NCBI GenBank assembly: GCA_038128225.1
Contig: JAYPJF010000002.1
Span: 258,785 to 322,784, forward strand
Direction: 5' to 3'
Source: a bacterium
GTDB taxonomy: Bacteria > Patescibacteriota > Minisyncoccia > Phycocordibacterales > UBA2100
DNA: 64,000 nt
This document shows positions 25,530 through 34,026 of the stretch, one piece after another (the stretch's first letter is position 1; every line of letters begins with the position of its first letter). The notes beneath the pieces were generated by a model. The model searched no databases. It saw only the letters and a program-made list of their open reading frames with translations, and had not been told where the DNA came from. The position numbers and the translations under genes were made by a program.

Positions 25530-28289
25530 CTATCGCATCGAGACTTCTCTGAAGTTGAAGCTCATCGGAGCCTCGAGGAAACTCCTCAAATCTCTAAAAA
25601 AGAGGTTGAGGATCGAGGGAGGGAGCTGAAATGGTATCGCTTCAGCTGCTGCAGCTGCTTGCACGTTCGCGTGCGCTTTTTCCCGCACTTCATCCAGGAC
25701 TTCGTCTTGTGAGGGCATGTCGAGCACCGCAGCAAGTGTCGGCGTTTCGATCGCGCCAACAGAACTGGTAGGAGGAAGCGGTTCATTGTTTTGGATCGCT
25801 GCCTCAAGTCGCGTGCGGAATGTTTCGATTTCTGATTGTTGCCCTGCGGTGAGACCGAAATCAGATACCCCCTGACAGTACAGGTTATTGATCATATTCT
25901 GTGTCGTGTAGTAGACATAGCCGGTCGCGCGCGTAATTCCCCACGGTTCGAGAATGTCGCTCTTGTTTGTTTCCTGGAACTGCTGCACGGCAGCAAGCGT
26001 TGCATTGTCGAAGATGCCGGTGATCTGCAAATCACTGCCGAGCCAATCGCGCAGGAAGAATTGAAGTTTGCGCACCTCTCGTTCATCATTGATCTCATTG
26101 ATGCCCAAGTAACTTGTGAGGTAGGGGGCACACTGTGGTGCTGCAACAATTTCTTCAGTCACTACCGGCGTGTTATTCAGTCGCGGCACAATGATGATTG
26201 ACGTGGATACAGTTGGTGAATGCCCAAACGCACCATAAAACGGGTTCACTGACGGATGGCGCGTAATCGCTTTTACTTGCGCCTTGTTCGTGTACTTTCC
26301 GGGTTTAGTCGATGTCGCAAATTGTACGGTGTAATCGACGGTGATTCGCTCCCCAGCAGGAATCTCCCCCAATCGCCATGTCTTCTGAAACACAGGTTGG
26401 CCGGCTCCATCGAGCATCGTGTCGAACAGTTCAGCGTGATATGCGGGTCCCTTGCCAGCATTGGTAACGACTATTTGATACTTGACCTCGCCGCCTGGCA
26501 CCGTCCCTTTTCCAACAACATTTTTTGTAATCTGAAGATCAGATTCTGGAGTGTATCGCACCGCAGTTCCACTGAACCCCCCATTCTGAAGTTGCAGTTG
26601 TTCGTTCACATCGTCCCAGAATGCTTGATCACCAAATCGCAAGTTTCCATTCCAGTCTCCCGAAATTGTGAAGAGCGCAAAAATCCAGTCTTGGCCGATA
26701 ATGTTCTGGTTCGCGAAGTTCAAGATATGCAAGAATGCATTCGCATCTCCGGTCCGTATTGCTGCAATAGTACCCTCAGCGACGTTGCCACCCGATACGG
26801 CCTCAACAAGAACGTTGTTAAGGATTTTTGCATAGTTGGTTGTTGTCGCGGTCACATTATCTTCAACATCAGTCGCTCGCTCAGCATTGCCCGCTCCACA
26901 AATGACTTCGCCAAATGGCGTCTCCTCGCGACTGAAGTTTTCAGGCAATCCGATAACGTCCCCATTCCACGTGCCCCCAACGTTCACGATAAAACAGATT
27001 GGGCGACCGCCCACTGAGTTTTGGTTCAGGAAGTTTTGCACTACAGCTCCCGTGTTTGCATCTCCGGTAACAACAAGCGCGCCTTCTGATCCAAGTGCTG
27101 CGTTCTCACCTGAGCTCGCTGTCGTGGTGCCATTATTGGTCACGTCCGCCGTATTATTGGCAGCAAAAGAACTTCCGTCATCAACCGAAGCCACGGTCGA
27201 AAGCGATGCAAAAAAAGTAGGAGGCGGTAATACCACATCACCTATCAAATCACCGACGTTACTCATAAGAATAACAAGGTACCGTGAGTTTACGATCTGA
27301 AGGTTTCCAAAGTTAATGATGCTTCCAAATGCGCTCGCGTCTCCTGTCTCGATAACTGCTGCGCCTTCTTCACTCTGCGCTTGATTCCCTCCTGAGTGCG
27401 AACGCACAACAAGCGTATTGGTAATTTCGGCCACACTGTCGGTGACAATGTTGAAAATCGCATCCGGGTTCACACACCCCGCGAGGGAACACGTTTCGTC
27501 ATTGGCGACGCCGCTGAAAATACTTTGAATGCGATCCGAGAGATCGAGCATGTCACCAATCGGGTTCTGGAGGAAGAGCAAACTTCCCGTTGAATTCGTG
27601 ATAACGACGTTAAACAAGGAAATGAGGACCGCAAATGCATCGGCCTCACCAGTAAATACGTAGGCGCCATCAGCATCTTCTGCCATGTTGCCGCCAGTTT
27701 CCGCAAACGCCACCGCGTCGTTTTGGTTATCAGCCGCACTTTCATTTTCTACTGCAACGTCCCCACCGCTTGCCCCTTGAGCCCCTTCGTCATTGGTGCC
27801 TCCTTCGCTAGTTTCTGTAGATGTGCCTGTGTCAGAAACCGTCGTGTCGTTCACGTTTGTCTGATCCACAACAGTTGCACCTGTTGACGCATCCCCTGTT
27901 TCAATAATTGAAGGTGCGCCATCGCTTGCCTGTGTCCCATCTCCTTCAGGTGTTGCTTGTTCTCCTGCCTGTGTGCCATCAGTCCCCGCCTCTCCGCCCT
28001 CGGTGGCATCACCATCTTCTCCAGCATCAGGAGTTGTTGTCTCGGCAGGAGCGCCGTCAGAACCATCAGCTCCATTTCCGCCATCTTCAAGTACCGGAGC
28101 CGGCGGTGTCGAATTATTTTCTTGAACAGGAGTTTCGACAACAGGAACACCCCCATCTTCAGCCCGAACAGAACTTGGAAACACCAACACGCCACCTGTA
28201 AGCACCACGATAAGAAGTGCTGCTACACACTGCTCAACAAAAAACCATTTTGAAAATTTATAGCCATCCGAATACATACGAAAATACAT
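25530..28289 (-). CDS. Large secreted surface protein with four internal SGGN...TGDA repeats, a DUF11 repeat and a C-terminal PG_binding_1-like domain
   Basis: Signal peptide; acidic low-complexity N-terminus; repeats such as AVIETGDASAFGSIINFGNLQIVNS; DUF11-like LQITKNVVGKG...VKYQIVVTNAGKGPA; C-terminal REVRKLQFFLRDWLG...AVQQFQ. Confidence 0.7.
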   Translation of the reverse strand: MYFRMYSDGYKFSKWFFVEQCVAALLIVVLTGGVLVFPSSVRAEDGGVPVVETPVQENNSTPPAPVLEDGGNGADGSDGAPAETTTPDAGEDGDATEGGEAGTDGTQAGEQATPEGDGTQASDGAPSIIETGDASTGATVVDQTNVNDTTVSDTGTSTETSEGGTNDEGAQGASGGDVAVENESAADNQNDAVAFAETGGNMAEDADGAYVFTGEADAFAVLISLFNVVITNSTGSLLFLQNPIGDMLDLSDRIQSIFSGVANDETCSLAGCVNPDAIFNIVTDSVAEITNTLVVRSHSGGNQAQSEEGAAVIETGDASAFGSIINFGNLQIVNSRYLVILMSNVGDLIGDVVLPPPTFFASLSTVASVDDGSSFAANNTADVTNNGTTTASSGENAALGSEGALVVTGDANTGAVVQNFLNQNSVGGRPICFIVNVGGTWNGDVIGLPENFSREETPFGEVICGAGNAERATDVEDNVTATTTNYAKILNNVLVEAVSGGNVAEGTIAAIRTGDANAFLHILNFANQNIIGQDWIFALFTISGDWNGNLRFGDQAFWDDVNEQLQLQNGGFSGTAVRYTPESDLQITKNVVGKGTVPGGEVKYQIVVTNAGKGPAYHAELFDTMLDGAGQPVFQKTWRLGEIPAGERITVDYTVQFATSTKPGKYTNKAQVKAITRHPSVNPFYGAFGHSPTVSTSIIIVPRLNNTPVVTEEIVAAPQCAPYLTSYLGINEINDEREVRKLQFFLRDWLGSDLQITGIFDNATLAAVQQFQETNKSDILEPWGITRATGYVYYTTQNMINNLYCQGVSDFGLTAGQQSEIETFRTRLEAAIQNNEPLPPTSSVGAIETPTLAAVLDMPSQDEVLDEVREKAHANVQAAAAAEAIPFQLPPSILNLFFRDLRSFLEAPMSFNFREVSMR

Positions 28290-28797
28290 TAGATACAAAC
28301 GCGTACACTTTGCTAATAACAGACTCCGCCGCGTGTTGAGGTTCAGCCTCAACGTCACTAATAATTTCTACGCCGGCGGGGCCCGGGTTCGCAGACTCTT
28401 CATGCACCACCACTTCTTCCGTGGTTATGGCTTTCTTTTCGCTTGAGATCGCAGTTGCAACCTCGCTCTTACCTGTGATCAGAGACGAGGTACCGGTATT
28501 GACATGCACTTGTGTCGAGACGCTCGCGCTGGTGCTCGTTGCTGTGTGTGCATACTTAATGGGTTCACTCTGTACGGTTTCTTCATATGCTTCCACAACT
28601 TTTCCATCAACAACCGTTTTGACTGACACACTACTGTTGCTTGCCCCTTCAAGAACCGTACCCCCCGTGCTCACATTACCTCCCGTAGTTGAGTGCACTT
28701 GTACTGAGTTATTCACTACGGTTGTTGCCGCACGCGCGACAAAAGGCGCACAGAGCCCAAGTGAAAAAATAAGTGTGTATGTCAGTGTGTACCGCAT
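28258..28797 (-). CDS. Secreted Ser/Thr-rich protein with a TGGNV motif
   Basis: Signal peptide MRYTLTYTLIFSLGLCAPFVARA; NNSVQVHSTTGGNVSTGG is related to its neighbours. Confidence 0.5.
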   Translation of the reverse strand: MRYTLTYTLIFSLGLCAPFVARAATTVVNNSVQVHSTTGGNVSTGGTVLEGASNSSVSVKTVVDGKVVEAYEETVQSEPIKYAHTATSTSASVSTQVHVNTGTSSLITGKSEVATAISSEKKAITTEEVVVHEESANPGPAGVEIISDVEAEPQHAAESVISKVYAFVSNVFSYVFGWL

Positions 28798-28877
28798 GCT
28801 TCTCGGCAAGACCTTAACCTTCAAGGTTCAGATCTTGCCAGAAGGGCTCTCAGAGAGAGCCGCTGTCTGGAAAACCA

Positions 28878-30086
28878 CTAGCGCAAGATGCGAGAGAGGT
28901 TTGTGTTGATGACGTTCATGAATGCTGAAGCAGTCTGAACTTCACCAGTTTGGATGAGGCCGCCAGCTGCACCGTTGCCGCCTTCGCCGCCCTCAGCGCC
29001 GTCACCTGTGTGACCGCCGTTGCCGCCAGCTGCACCGTTACCGCCGTTACCGCCCTCACCACCGTGACCACCGAGGTTGTTGCCAACGTAGGTTTCGTAC
29101 CAGTCGTACCAGTCATCAGACCAGATGTCCCACCAGTCTCCGCTACCGTTTGCATCACCACCGTTGCCACCCTCGTCACCGTCGCCGCCGCTGCCGCCTT
29201 TAGCACCATCGCCAGCGTTGTCGCCAGCTGAGCCGCCTTTGCCGCCCTTTGCGCCGTCGCCACCGTCAGAAACGTTGCCACCGGTGTTTGCAGTGTCAAT
29301 TACTGCGTTGGTTACTACTGCAGTGTTTGCGTTTACCACGCCAACATCCCCGTGATCAACTGGAACGTGGGTCTTTGCGTATTCACGATACGCCTTGTCC
29401 TTCATCCAGTCGTGGGTGTATCCGTCTTCGTCGCAATCATAATCACACCAGTCAGACCAATCATCCCAGTAGCCGTAGCCACCTGAAACATGATCTTCTT
29501 CATGAGAGAGTTTTTCCTTCTCCCAGATGTCGTACATTGCTTCGCCGCAACCGCAATCGGTTGTGTCGATTTCAGTGTCGTTGGTGTTTACTGTGTTTGA
29601 GATCACAACTCCGGTTGTGATGTCGCCGGTTGAGATTACTCCACCTACGCCACCGTTACCACCGTTGCCACCTGCTGCGCCTGATCCGGTTGAACCACCT
29701 TGGCCACCGTATGCAGCGTCGCCGCCGTTACCACCGTTACCACCAAAACCACCGAGGTTGTCACCGCCGTTGCCGCCGTTTGCTTCACCGCCGTTGCCAC
29801 CCTCGTCACCGTCGCCGCCGCTGCCGCCTTTAGCACCATCGCCAGCATTGTCGCCACCATTGCCGCCCTTGCCACCCTTACCAGCGTCGCCGCCAACTGC
29901 GACGTTACCACCGGTGTTTGCCGTCGTAACTACTGAGTTGGTTACTACTGCAGTGTTTGTGTTTGTGACAAACACATCTCCGTAGTCAACATCTGCAGAT
30001 GCTACGGTTGCTGCGCCGAACAATGCGATCGCTGCAACTACAACTGCAAAAACAACACCAAAAGACATTTCTCGAACTGTAGTCAT
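28878..30086 (-). CDS. Secreted Gly-rich repeat protein with an internal 210-aa tandem duplication
   Basis: NTAVVTNSVVTTANTGGNVAVGGDAGKGGKGGNGGDNAGDGAKGGSGGDGDEGGNGG is repeated as NTAVVTNAVIDTANTGGNVSDGG...; ends QTASAFMNVINTN. Confidence 0.6.
   Translation of the reverse strand: MTTVREMSFGVVFAVVVAAIALFGAATVASADVDYGDVFVTNTNTAVVTNSVVTTANTGGNVAVGGDAGKGGKGGNGGDNAGDGAKGGSGGDGDEGGNGGEANGGNGGDNLGGFGGNGGNGGDAAYGGQGGSTGSGAAGGNGGNGGVGGVISTGDITTGVVISNTVNTNDTEIDTTDCGCGEAMYDIWEKEKLSHEEDHVSGGYGYWDDWSDWCDYDCDEDGYTHDWMKDKAYREYAKTHVPVDHGDVGVVNANTAVVTNAVIDTANTGGNVSDGGDGAKGGKGGSAGDNAGDGAKGGSGGDGDEGGNGGDANGSGDWWDIWSDDWYDWYETYVGNNLGGHGGEGGNGGNGAAGGNGGHTGDGAEGGEGGNGAAGGLIQTGEVQTASAFMNVINTNLSRILR
29161..29345. 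repeat. Intragenic direct repeat copy A (about 185 bp)
   Basis: The first 56 nt are identical to 29791-29846 (ccgttgccaccctcgtcaccgtcgccgccgctgccgcctttagcaccatcgccagc); the remainder is about 75% identical. Confidence 0.7.
29791..29975. repeat. Intragenic direct repeat copy B (630 bp offset)
   Basis: Partner of 29161-29345. Confidence 0.7.
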
Positions 30087-30440
30087 AATTTTTCTTTAAG
30101 TAAGCCTTTCTAATGCTTAATAATTAAGACTGATAATCTTCTCGACCCGCGCGGCTATTATTAGCCAACGCCGGAATGCAAAACCCCAACGTTTTGGTTC
30201 TGTTTTCCAACGTGGTGTGCGAGTTTAAATAAAAACTCGCCCGTGGGGCGGTTTACAAGTCAGTTTTCTGGCCTGTTCGCGCGCGCACGTAAATAGCGTT
30301 TGCGAAGCAGATCTTCTCGTTTTGTCTACAGGGCTTCGTGCAGTGCACGAATTAGCATGATTTTCGCGCAATAGCTTTTAACTGTCAACCTGTGGAAAAC
30401 TCAGTTTGTGTTCTGTAGTGCAGCACTATCCTTAAAAAAG

Positions 30441-30540
30441 AAAACAGCCCCAGAGTGGGTACTAAACCCCCGTAGACGTGAGTCGAGAAGACCAGCTTCT
30501 TTTTCTCAAGCTTCGTTTAGTACCCGCCCTGAGGCTGTTT
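30441..30540 (-). terminator. Extended imperfect inverted repeat with T-runs on both sides; acts as the terminator of the 450-aa surface-protein gene
   Basis: aaaacagcc...GGGTACTAAAC (30458-30468) ... GTTTAGTACCC (30515-30525)...ggctgttttt; the 11-bp outer stem encloses inner gagaag/cttct pairing. Confidence 0.4.
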
Positions 30541-30558
30541 TTCGAAAGATCAGACGCA

Positions 30559-31911
30559 CTATTCACCAAAACCTGGCAACACACTCCGCATTTTCGCGAA
30601 CAAACTACCGATATGTTCTCGAATATTCTTTATGAACACCCGGTTTTTCACCGGTGTCGCATCATCAGCAGTCACTGCCGCAGCGGCAAGTTGGGAATCA
30701 CTTCCTTCTGCTGATTCCGCAGGAATTTCGTCCGCAGCCTCGGCTACCGCAGCCACAATCGGAGCAATTGTGCTGCGTTCAACTCCTAGTATTGTTCGGT
30801 CACCGAGGCGCGCATGTTCGATTTCTTTGACCTGTGCGTCACTCAGAGGAAATTGCTCACGATTTTCACAATACAGCTCATTTATTTTTTTTCGTGTCGT
30901 CAAATAGACATGTCCTGTCGGAGCAGTCGTACCCCAAGGATTTAAAACTTCAGAAGCGTAGCGTTTTTGGAACACTTCAACTGCAGCGATTGAAGGTGCG
31001 TCATATTCACCTGAAGTCTCCAACGTAAACCCCTCGAGCGTCCGCAAGAAATCTTGAAGTTTACGCACTTCAGCAGGATCGTTCGCTCCACCGCGTTTAA
31101 TAAACATCTGCAAATAAGGCACGCATTGGTTTGCTTTGGATTGCTCCGGCGTGGTTGTTGCATGAATAGCGATCTCATGTTCAGCACCAAACGCAAACAT
31201 GCCGTTCACCGTAGCAACAGGCCGCACATACCACACCTGGTCAGAAGCAAGATCGAGCACTACGTTGTGCCACCACCGGTCTTCTGATCCGATCTCGGTG
31301 TGATAGCCGTAGGTATAGTGTGGTGACGTAAATCCATCAGCAGTCCCACCAATCATGGGCACGCTCGTCGTGCCGTATACTACCCAGCCGGTTGCAGCTA
31401 TATTAGTTTCCCACGTCACACTCACTCCACCCTCAACTACTTCATACGTCTCATTAGAAATCATCAGTGTTTCCAGTGTGGCTCCGCCACCAGAAGAGCC
31501 TGATGTGCCTCCGCCAGAAGTACCTCCTGGCGAACCGCCTCCTGAAGAATCACCACCAGAACTACCCCCGCCTCCCCCATTTTCTCCGGAGCCGTTTCCA
31601 CCTCCAGTGTCTCCACCCCCAGACCCACCACCGTCAGTTCCGCCCCCTCCTGAACCCCCGCCAGTGCATGAGCCGGGCACATCGAGCACTCCAGCCTGGT
31701 GCAGTATTGAGTATGTGTCACACACAATCTCCCCCGCATCGGACGACTGTCCGACCGGGTCTCCACTACTCTGGTCAGTAGCCGATTGCAACGCATCGGT
31801 CAAAAGTTGTTGAGCCAAATCGATGATTCCCCCCGTATCCACCGAAACCGACGCGTGCGCTGGTGTCGCCATCAATATCAGTGCCAAAACAAAAAAAAGT
31901 GATGACTTCAT
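30559..31911 (-). CDS. Secreted protein with a long Gly/Ser-rich linker and a C-terminal PG_binding_1-like domain
   Basis: Signal peptide MKSSLFFVLALILMATPAHA; about 70 aa of GGGSGG linker; C-terminal EVRKLQDFLRTLEG...AVEVFQKRY. Confidence 0.6.
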   Translation of the reverse strand: MKSSLFFVLALILMATPAHASVSVDTGGIIDLAQQLLTDALQSATDQSSGDPVGQSSDAGEIVCDTYSILHQAGVLDVPGSCTGGGSGGGGTDGGGSGGGDTGGGNGSGENGGGGGSSGGDSSGGGSPGGTSGGGTSGSSGGGATLETLMISNETYEVVEGGVSVTWETNIAATGWVVYGTTSVPMIGGTADGFTSPHYTYGYHTEIGSEDRWWHNVVLDLASDQVWYVRPVATVNGMFAFGAEHEIAIHATTTPEQSKANQCVPYLQMFIKRGGANDPAEVRKLQDFLRTLEGFTLETSGEYDAPSIAAVEVFQKRYASEVLNPWGTTAPTGHVYLTTRKKINELYCENREQFPLSDAQVKEIEHARLGDRTILGVERSTIAPIVAAVAEAADEIPAESAEGSDSQLAAAAVTADDATPVKNRVFIKNIREHIGSLFAKMRSVLPGFGE

Positions 31912-32141: not shown

Positions 32142-32819
32142 CTAATGATGTGCAGAGAGCGAATGTTCGCACAGTGCACGCATTATGCGCGAAACTTCCT
32201 GACTGCGTGTGTGGAATGCCACATAACTTCCATCGGGGTGCACGGTAATGAACGAAAGCGCCTGTGCGCTGACCAATACTCCCGTTTGTGGACTCACGCG
32301 CCCCTCATCTTCGGGCTTATTCAAGGCGAGCACTTCTTCGGGAAGAACGGTTGCCCGTTTTTCCAATTTCTTCCACGAGCGAAGACTGCTCATGTGTCGA
32401 ACAAATGCGGTGTTTGCGATCACGATTGGCGCGTCTTCAACAACAAGATAGTCCTCAAGAATGGTATCTACTCCTTCGGCACCAAGAGCTGTTTGCATGT
32501 ATTGTTGTGCCACTTTCGTTTTACGTGTTTGTTCCAGCTGTGGAAGGATCGCGGCAAAACTCTTGGTTACGTCTTCGTGACGCTTCAGTATGTTTCGCGG
32601 CGGCTCTGCAGTCCAAATTTTCTGGCGCCGCTTCATGTAGCATCGGGCGTATCCTTGTTTTTCCAACTTGTCGAGCACATCGCGTGCGGTGGTGCGCGGA
32701 GTTCCTGCTGCGCGCGCAATGTCTGCAGCGGTACCTTCTCCAATCTGAAGGAGTAGGAGGTATGTTTTTGCCTCAACAGGCTTGTGCCCCAGTCGTTCAA
32801 TTACCCGTTGAGCTTCCAT
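32142..32819 (-). CDS. TrmB-family transcriptional regulator
   Basis: wHTH AKTYLLLLQIGEGTAADIARAAGTPRTTARDVLDKLEKQGYA. Confidence 0.7.
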   Translation of the reverse strand: MEAQRVIERLGHKPVEAKTYLLLLQIGEGTAADIARAAGTPRTTARDVLDKLEKQGYARCYMKRRQKIWTAEPPRNILKRHEDVTKSFAAILPQLEQTRKTKVAQQYMQTALGAEGVDTILEDYLVVEDAPIVIANTAFVRHMSSLRSWKKLEKRATVLPEEVLALNKPEDEGRVSPQTGVLVSAQALSFITVHPDGSYVAFHTRSQEVSRIMRALCEHSLSAHH

Positions 32820-32960
32820 GGGAAGCATTTAGCCATAACTGCGCATAAAAGACACTAGACGAAAGCAAAATACTGTGATGTTGGTCAGCGCAGAGAATGT
32901 CCTTTATAAATCCATAAAGGACTCGATGTGAGTTTTTTACTTTGATACAAAAGGAATTGT

Positions 32961-33627: not shown

Positions 33628-34026
33628 TCACACAGCCTCTACCTTCGCACAAGGCCTACACCTACACCCGTGTGGCTTTATAAATTCTTTGAAATACTCT
33701 TCCCCATAATCCATGGTGATTTCTGTCCCTGGTGAAATGTTTTTTTCCGCATAAATGTAAATGTGGCCGTTTTTCAATGACGCCGCCGCGTTTGGTTTAC
33801 AAGAATGATTGATATACCGCGCAATATTGTCATAGGCAGAACCGTCAATCGTCCACCCATTCTCGAGATCAAACAGATAGCGCGTCGTCAGCGTATCGGC
33901 GTATGTTGTTTTAATGAGGGAACCAGTATATTCAATGATGAACTTCCCCTTGAGAATTGCTCGGTCGGCAAACAAACCGAGGCCCGTATTTTCCGTGCGT
34001 TTAACGCGAACTGCCGGTGCATCCAT
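33628..34026 (-). CDS. SET-domain protein (putative lysine methyltransferase)
   Basis: NHSCKPN (pseudoknot motif), GTEITMDYG, ELxF/Y-like, and a C-terminal Cys cluster CRCRPC (post-SET). Confidence 0.75.
   Translation of the reverse strand: MDAPAVRVKRTENTGLGLFADRAILKGKFIIEYTGSLIKTTYADTLTTRYLFDLENGWTIDGSAYDNIARYINHSCKPNAAASLKNGHIYIYAEKNISPGTEITMDYGEEYFKEFIKPHGCRCRPCAKVEAV

Follow-up and report, generated by a model that had tools for sequence, protein, structure and literature searches.

How ultra-small and mostly episymbiotic bacteria of the candidate phyla radiation (CPR, or Patescibacteria) make surface contact with their hosts or environment is poorly understood, and the locus described here raises this question in concrete form: what would four neighboring genes for putative secreted proteins, three of them sharing a repeat module, build on such a cell? 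The locus spans positions 25,530 to 31,911 of a 64,000-nucleotide stretch of contig JAYPJF010000002.1 (assembly GCA_038128225.1; Patescibacteriota, Minisyncoccia, Phycocordibacterales, UBA2100) that we analyzed as a whole and call the window. An initial annotation, made from the sequence alone, had placed four open reading frames (ORFs) on its minus strand (25530-28358, 28258-28824, 28878-30086, and 30559-31911; here p942, p188, p402, and p450), all of which we recovered, and had interpreted them as an island of low-complexity surface proteins undergoing repeat expansion. We consider it probable, with moderate confidence, that they instead form a conserved Patescibacteria cell-envelope gene cluster encoding a peptidoglycan-tethered surface assembly.

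A conserved cluster and its repeat module

Synteny of the cluster extends over about 20 related Patescibacteria genomes or loci. A Gly-rich protein (17-29% Gly) with two N-half motifs is encoded directly upstream of the large, p942-like protein in about 19 related loci, a p188-like single-module gene lies between the p402-like and the large gene or just downstream of them, and a p450-like gene with the same C-terminal domain is found further upstream in at least 9 loci. The genes on either side vary from genome to genome, which leaves these four as the conserved unit. This synteny, together with a G+C content (0.49-0.54) that is the same as in the flanks, leads us to reject a horizontally acquired island. 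Module counts are constant across the approximately 20 relatives, with about 4.5 in the large protein (4 full modules and an N-terminal half copy), 2 in p402-like proteins, and 1 in p188-like proteins; p402-like proteins vary in length from 227 to 454 aa through their Gly-rich inserts and not through their number of modules. The comparison of related genomes for copy-number variation that the initial annotation had proposed thus found none.

The module is about 58 aa long and follows a 60-position profile, N.A.V.N.l...A.TG.N.A..[turn]..I.TGDA.a.....N..N.N. A motif scan and a profile hidden Markov model (HMM) built from aligned copies located in p942 the 4 full modules that had been counted before, plus one half module (Table 1). 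Because this first HMM contained window sequences, we rebuilt it from eight distant relatives only; the independent HMM, free of window sequences, matched p942 (E 3.8e-27), with three modules at E 1e-10 to 6e-6 and the half module at E 0.009. The two modules previously seen in p402 are each interrupted by a Gly-rich insert of 90-105 aa and go undetected by HMM while intact, but splicing out the residues between TGGN.A and I.TGD makes both units match, at E 1e-6 and 6e-6 for the full HMM and at 6e-3 and 2e-4 for the independent one. The single copy of p188 is degenerate and gives a weak N-half match that is not significant alone (E 0.6-0.8), but p188 homologues beside the large gene in other genomes retain the full TGGN...TGDA motif, and hhalign places a p188-family profile on the module in the correct register (probability 69%, P 4e-5). 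No module was found in p450 by motif scan or HMM, so that the repeat once ascribed to all four proteins is a feature of only three.

No Pfam or NCBIfam model covers the module in the four window proteins or in nine relatives, PDB sequence searches with full-length and module profiles returned nothing meaningful, and Foldseek found no significant match to the module-region model in PDB or BFVD. We also found no description of module or cluster in the literature, and the earlier failure to assign the module to a named family is borne out. A word-index homology search with a short module alignment gave no matches; an exhaustive search of 1.84 billion cluster representatives with the profile, in line with the HMM search first suggested, matched 3,207 proteins at E≤1e-3, among them 708 at E≤1e-30, and the former number is a lower bound on the protein clusters (at 50% identity) with the module. 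Most of the matched proteins show five matched stretches, and every named member is a "hypothetical protein" of Parcubacteria, Kaiserbacteria, Roizmanbacteria, Woesebacteria, Microgenomates, or the "Patescibacteria group". Judged by these searches, the module is a widespread unnamed family that is confined to Patescibacteria among its named members.

Structure prediction speaks against the label of low complexity. AlphaFold2 modeled full-length p942 with a predicted local distance difference test score (pLDDT) of 79, using an alignment of 65-66 sequences, and the module region alone as a confident all-β fold of about 420 aa (pLDDT 86, predicted template modeling score 0.81) in which strands of about 22, 16, and 8-9 residues recur in each module. 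Mean-field direct coupling analysis (DCA) of 810 unique module copies from 219 proteins placed 16 of the 35 top couplings on the antidiagonal i+j = 48-52, compared to about 8% expected, including (4,45), (10,39), (12,37), (14,35), (16,33), (17,32), (19,30), and (21,28). These couplings pair module positions 2-21 in antiparallel fashion with positions 28-48 around a turn at 22-27, and agree with the AlphaFold2 strands in making each module a long antiparallel β-hairpin with an additional third strand. Because this is an intramodule hairpin signature (a ladder at i+j of about 49) and the predicted strands measure 16-22 residues, we reject the classical β-solenoid or β-helix that had seemed plausible at first. 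With the full p942 model, Foldseek returned only immunoglobulin (Ig)-like matches (CARDB/Spo0M type), which fall on the DUF11 domain described below.

The insertion site in p402 coincides exactly with the predicted turn at module positions 22-27, so that its Gly-rich inserts form loops at the hairpin tips. These inserts are acidic, with Gly making up 42-52% of the residues, and contain 16-20 GGx triplets besides several GG.G.[DN] motifs. Comparable glycine-rich GGX/GGN regions are known from mycobacterial PE_PGRS proteins and from the GGxGxD nonapeptides of RTX proteins, which have such triplets and motifs in common with p402; unlike them, the p402 inserts are loops on a hairpin tip and not a free-standing domain, and they match neither HemolysinCabind nor any other Pfam family. 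RTX/HemolysinCabind and Chlam_PMP were rejected as candidates since neither matched any of the four proteins in Pfam at E≤1. In the linker that separates the two p402 units, an E/D-CGC-E/D motif directly after the first module is kept across p402 homologues, and Trp/Asp/Tyr-rich acidic stretches (DWWDIWSDDWYDWYETY) recur in this linker and in the second insert (29110-29160).

Proposed export, anchoring, and surface assembly

All four proteins were annotated with signal peptides, and their N-termini indeed show a basic n-region ahead of a hydrophobic core and an AxA-like site (VRA/ED, ARA/AT, ASA/DV, and AHA/SV). Conserved Cys pairs of extracytoplasmic type are also present, and we infer that all four are exported via the Sec pathway.

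Two of them, p942 and p450, share a C-terminal domain, about 110-130 aa in length and with E 4e-26 between the two, that had been recognized as PG_binding_1-like. This assignment draws support from 15 of the 16 members of the C-domain family, which match PF01471 (best E 3.4e-8), and from the excised p942 domain, which scores 25.4 bits against a cutoff of 23. In common with the PF01471 domains of the Streptomyces D-Ala-D-Ala carboxypeptidase 1LBU and of phage endolysins, the C-domain shows a sequence match, though a partial one, to the helical peptidoglycan-binding repeat, and its position suits noncovalent tethering. Unlike them, it has no catalytic domain attached in p942 or p450, and it carries an extension of about 60 aa (PWG..PTG.VYYTTQ.K.N.L.C) and a Cys pair that are specific to Patescibacteria surface proteins. 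Neither p402 nor p188 has an anchor domain. Sortase-dependent anchoring was rejected because no conserved LPXTG motif with hydrophobic helix and basic tail is present: the sole match, LPPTS at p942 residue 861, is not conserved and not followed by a transmembrane segment.

Between module region and C-domain, p942 carries the DUF11 domain that had been noted in one of the proteins (Table 1). This family, also called CLIPPER, has recently been shown to form the stalks of fibrillar adhesins, as a CnaA-like domain with an isopeptide bond and a Lys/Asp/Asn triad (PMC12617251). In p942, K612 (ITK), D646 (FDT), and N691 (YTNKA) are invariant in 20 homologues and are candidates for such an intramolecular isopeptide triad. 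The order of a signal peptide, an N-terminal head, a CnaA-like Ig stalk with triad, and a C-terminal envelope anchor is common to p942 and the CLIPPER fibrillar adhesins. However, p942 has one stalk domain instead of a tandem array, its anchor is PG_binding_1-like and not an LPXTG, OmpA, or sortase signal, and its head is the undescribed 4.5-module β-hairpin domain, with small head-only paralogues encoded alongside.

Several side observations concern the termini and the p450 family. Hydrophobic or amphipathic, aromatic-rich tails are found at the C-termini of p188 (28261-28323), p942 (25533-25650), p450 (30562-30640), and homologues (e.g., ...VYAFVSNVFSYVFGWL; equivalents in homologues read ...FAAFKFW and WLLSA.PFVEA.E); they may be membrane- or wall-associating helices. 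More distant family members of about 750 aa with five modules (proteins P0007-P0014 and many profile-search matches, including Roizmanbacteria and Woesebacteria) are devoid of DUF11 and peptidoglycan-binding domains; their C-termini instead combine a conserved NLAW.L motif with a hydrophobic helix and an RRK tail. This head domain would thus be anchored by different means in different CPR lineages. The p450 orthologues of Kaiserbacteria-like relatives (L003:4841-6130 and L004:4859-6118) contain 3-4 repeats of the form C.DG.DND.DG..D...DP.C, with poly-Gly between them, that have the look of Ca2+-binding sequences. The p450 of the window is without these repeats and instead has an FN3-like middle domain that is also seen in giant Lloydbacteria proteins.

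We propose that p942 and p450 are held noncovalently on peptidoglycan by their C-domains, with the CLIPPER domain of p942 as a short rigid stalk and its hairpin-module domain as an exposed head. p402 and p188, presumably co-expressed with p942 (53-nt gap, 20-nt overlap), would associate with the homologous module domain of p942 through β-sheet contacts, and together they would make up a defined wall-associated surface structure for adhesion or protection. Some observations count against this proposal. The PF01471 match is limited to profile positions 4-41 of 57 and stays below the 23-bit cutoff in the full-length proteins (21.1 bits for p942 and 17.1 bits for p450). PDB profile matches of the C-domain to peptidoglycan-binding domains are weak (E 0.014-0.14), the best being the peptidoglycan-binding region of 1LBU, an endolysin, and a putative peptidoglycan-binding protein. 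The signal peptides were assessed by eye only, the association of p402 and p188 with p942 is based on shared modules and gene adjacency only, and the homologues that place the bacterium in the Paceibacteria/"Parcubacteria", as Kaiserbacteria-like, are at most 45% identical.

A surface layer (S-layer)-type lattice, with p942 (with or without p450) as the main self-assembling, peptidoglycan-tethered layer protein and p402 and p188 as accessory lattice proteins, is unlikely in our view. The predicted secreted proteins are acidic, p942 combines a large β-rich domain with a wall-binding-type C-domain, the cluster is lineage-wide, single-copy, and conserved, and S-layer proteins in Patescibacteria have been reported by a survey preprint (10.1101/2024.05.28.596244). 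However, none of the four proteins matches SLH or another S-layer family in Pfam or NCBIfam, and the layout of head, stalk, and anchor suits a protruding adhesin-like protein equally well. We would likewise give little credence to a more far-reaching version of the wall-tethered assembly, an undescribed Patescibacteria-specific extracellular structure in which p942, a platform with an unpaired half module at the start of its head, recruits or templates p188 and p402 by β-strand or β-sheet complementation. If true, the result would be a surface fiber or layer with Gly-rich, possibly Ca2+-binding hairpin-tip loops, i.e., a new structural class of appendage with a fold without solved relative.

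The p402 repeat and the remaining alternatives

A recent intragenic duplication of 630 bp had been reported for p402 and taken as a sign of ongoing expansion. The DNA repeat is real and includes a tract of 56 identical nt, but 630 nt is the offset between its copies (210 codons, exactly in frame) and not the length of their identity: copies A and B align over 215 nt at 83% identity, and beyond these 215 nt the two p402 units cannot be aligned as DNA. Nor is the repeat recent. The copies differ by 12 synonymous and 14 non-synonymous codon changes among 71 codons, and two units are present in all p402-family members, which come from independently assembled genomes. In three sets of relatives (L004/L011/L008, L016/L027, and L018/L023), each unit finds its nearest counterpart in the unit of the same number, so that the duplication must predate speciation. 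Against this divergence, an identical run of 56 nt is improbable (permutation P 8e-5), and the units are homogenized relative to their orthologues in several lineages, most clearly in L003. Taken together, unit orthology, codon divergence, the improbable 56-nt run, and the homogenized lineages suggest that the repeat is best explained as an ancestral two-unit design with an intragenic gene-conversion tract of 56 nt.

The repeat also left its mark on short-read data. Logan contigs from three different samples stop at one and the same window position, 29190, which falls 30 nt inside the tract of 56 identical nt. Over about 6 kb, two of them (L001 and L002) deviate from the window by 0-1 nt, while the third (L051) encodes a p942 variant of at least 90% identity and breaks at the same point. 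Since three read sets break where a k=31 assembly graph would branch, the repeat is present in independent data, and the stops inside it mark the p402 region as hard to assemble.

These observations bear on the original idea of variable surface adhesins, in which ongoing tandem-repeat expansion and a recent p402 duplication generate antigenic or adhesive diversity. The wide differences among p402 homologues in Gly-rich inserts and length, 9-nt periodic repeats in the DNA, the intragenic homogenization in several lineages, and the contig breaks would all fit it. Yet the number of modules is fixed for each protein type (always 4 full modules in the large protein and 2 in the p402 family) and mostly five stretches per protein in the wider family, the units are orthologous across species with substantial synonymous divergence between copies, and the three samples are nearly identical to the window or break at the same point as described above. 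We therefore regard this scenario as quite improbable.

A functional amyloid similar to curli, Fap, or chaplins is very unlikely, although the cluster resembles curli CsgA/CsgB and Pseudomonas FapC in its imperfect Asn/Gly/Ala-rich strand-turn repeats with a G-x-G-N-x-A-like motif and in encoding anchored and free proteins with a common repeat in one putative operon. By this analogy, p402 and p188 would be fiber subunits and p942 the nucleator, and FapC and CsgA are indeed the top, non-significant Foldseek PDB matches of the module domain. These matches are at chance level, though (E 0.2-1.3, template modeling score 0.06), the Pfam scan found no Curlin_rpt at E≤1, and hhalign against CsgA repeats gave a probability of 0.3%, so that a relationship to curli is rejected. 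The module of about 58 aa is also much longer than the curli repeat of about 22 aa, coevolution indicates an intramolecular antiparallel hairpin and not parallel cross-β stacking, AlphaFold2 predicts a confident monomeric domain, and no secretion or chaperone genes, such as CsgG/E/F-type machinery, are conserved beside the cluster. Finally, it is extremely improbable that the p402 duplication is an assembly artefact (a mis-join or collapsed repeat): the contigs of three samples do terminate in it, but ends 30 nt into the tract indicate a true k=31 branch with two contexts, and the join in the 345-kb contig is supported by the exact in-frame offset and the two-unit architecture of every homologue.

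Putative transcription units, neighboring features, and outlook

In public assemblies with identical contigs, the large gene is called from ATG 28277 (915 aa, protein P0017) and the small gene from ATG 28797 (179 aa). We think that the 942-aa ORF probably has its true start at the former position; the overlap of 20 nt between p188 and p942 applies to these ATG starts, and the gap of 53 nt separates p402 from p188. A long-stem hairpin with U-run directly 3' of the p450 stop is probably an intrinsic terminator that divides p450 from the downstream genes. Because of this terminator-like hairpin and the tight spacing of p402, p188, and p942, the arrangement suggests two transcription units, with p450 alone and p402-p188-p942 jointly transcribed. 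Consensus scans of the region for promoters and terminators gave counts not above those in shuffled sequences, and the long hairpin after p450 is the sole feature that stands out. The coordinates of all features are listed in Table 1.

Table 1. Features of the four-gene cluster, in window coordinates
Feature	Position	Strand	Details
p942 gene	25530..28277	-	probable 915 aa from ATG 28277; longest ORF (942 aa) from GTG 28358; signal peptide, acidic disordered spacer, 4.5-module β domain, CLIPPER/DUF11 domain, PG_binding_1-like domain, C-terminal tail
p942 PG_binding_1-like C-terminal domain	25764..26156	-	residues 735-865; PWG..PTG.VYYTTQ extension and conserved Cys pair, family-specific
p942 CLIPPER (DUF11, PF01345) Ig-like domain	26262..26540	-	residues 607-699; Pfam 35 bits, cutoff 24.6, E 2e-8
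p942 module region	26673..27920	-	HMM matches, AlphaFold2, coevolution hairpin ladder
p942 full module	26673-26843	-	residues 506-562
p942 full module	26985-27158	-	residues 401-458
p942 full module	27264-27440	-	residues 307-365
p942 full module	27573-27743	-	residues 206-262
p942 half module	27849-27920	-	residues 147-170; C-terminal half of module
p188 gene	28258..28797	-	probable 179 aa from ATG 28797 (188-aa ORF: 28258-28824); signal peptide, single degenerate module, hydrophobic C-terminal tail
p188 degenerate module	28609-28728	-	residues ~33-72
p402 gene	28878..30086	-	two units, i.e., modules each split at the predicted hairpin tip by a Gly-rich GGX insert
p402 unit 2	28881-29333	-	C-half 28881-28961, insert 28962-29255, N-half 29256-29333
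p402 linker	29334-29570	-	CGCG motif, W/D/Y-rich
p402 unit 1	29571-29963	-	C-half 29571-29645, insert 29646-29888, N-half 29889-29963
DNA repeat copy A (p402 unit 2)	29146..29360	.	56-nt identical tract 29161-29216
DNA repeat copy B (p402 unit 1)	29776..29990	.	56-nt identical tract 29791-29846
Promoter-like site upstream of p402	30360..30388	-	TTGACA-17-GAAAAT; consensus match only; such sites no commoner in the region than in shuffles
Long-stem hairpin and U-run 3' of p450	30434..30541	-	ΔG -50.1 kcal/mol, z -5.8 vs shuffles; probable terminator
p450 gene	30559..31911	-	no module; signal peptide, Gly/Ser-rich linker, β-rich middle domain, PG_binding_1-like C-domain
p450 PG_binding_1-like C-domain	30802-31140	-	
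p450 β-rich middle domain	31147-31485	-	
p450 Gly/Ser-rich linker	31489-31635	-	

A short GC hairpin with a T-run after it (CGCCC-CAC-GGGCG; 30228-30250, minus strand) lies in the p402 leader of the window, about 150 nt before the ATG and 3' of the promoter-like site; it may represent an attenuator or the terminus of a small transcript. A different element is found in the 5' leader of the p402-like genes of one subclade, where a conserved structured RNA of about 127 nt has a 23-bp hairpin together with an invariant second one, GCGCCGUCCGUACGGAGGC. It occurs at L003:6761-6889, L004:6821-6929, L011:287-414, L008:5544-5684, L016:4867-4992, L027:5173-5300, L021:4814-4922, L012:4904-5030, L013:4957-5083, L029:5907-6034, and L032:5921-6045, and shows compensatory changes at 12 of its 34 predicted consensus pairs. 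A covariance model recovered the RNA at 4 loci outside the seed (44-91 bits). This RNA has no Rfam match, is absent from the p402 leader of the window itself, and is a candidate for a new cis-regulatory element. Immediately upstream of p450 and on the same strand lies a gene for a TrmB-family helix-turn-helix regulator (32142-32828, minus strand), and a 132-aa SET-domain protein is encoded nearby (33628-34026, minus strand; Pfam E 1e-24). Scans of the whole 64-kb window detected neither a tRNA gene nor, at gathering threshold, any Rfam family.

By itself, the wall-tethered assembly that we favor implies no new mechanism, but the analysis delimits an uncharacterized, lineage-wide surface protein system with a fold unit that is supported by coevolution. 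Clustered at 50% identity, the large protein family defined by the module numbers at least 3,200 clusters, and it is missing from domain and structure databases. Within one lineage, the fixed set of one putatively wall-anchored and two free module proteins would provide testable candidates for the outermost envelope of Paceibacteria.

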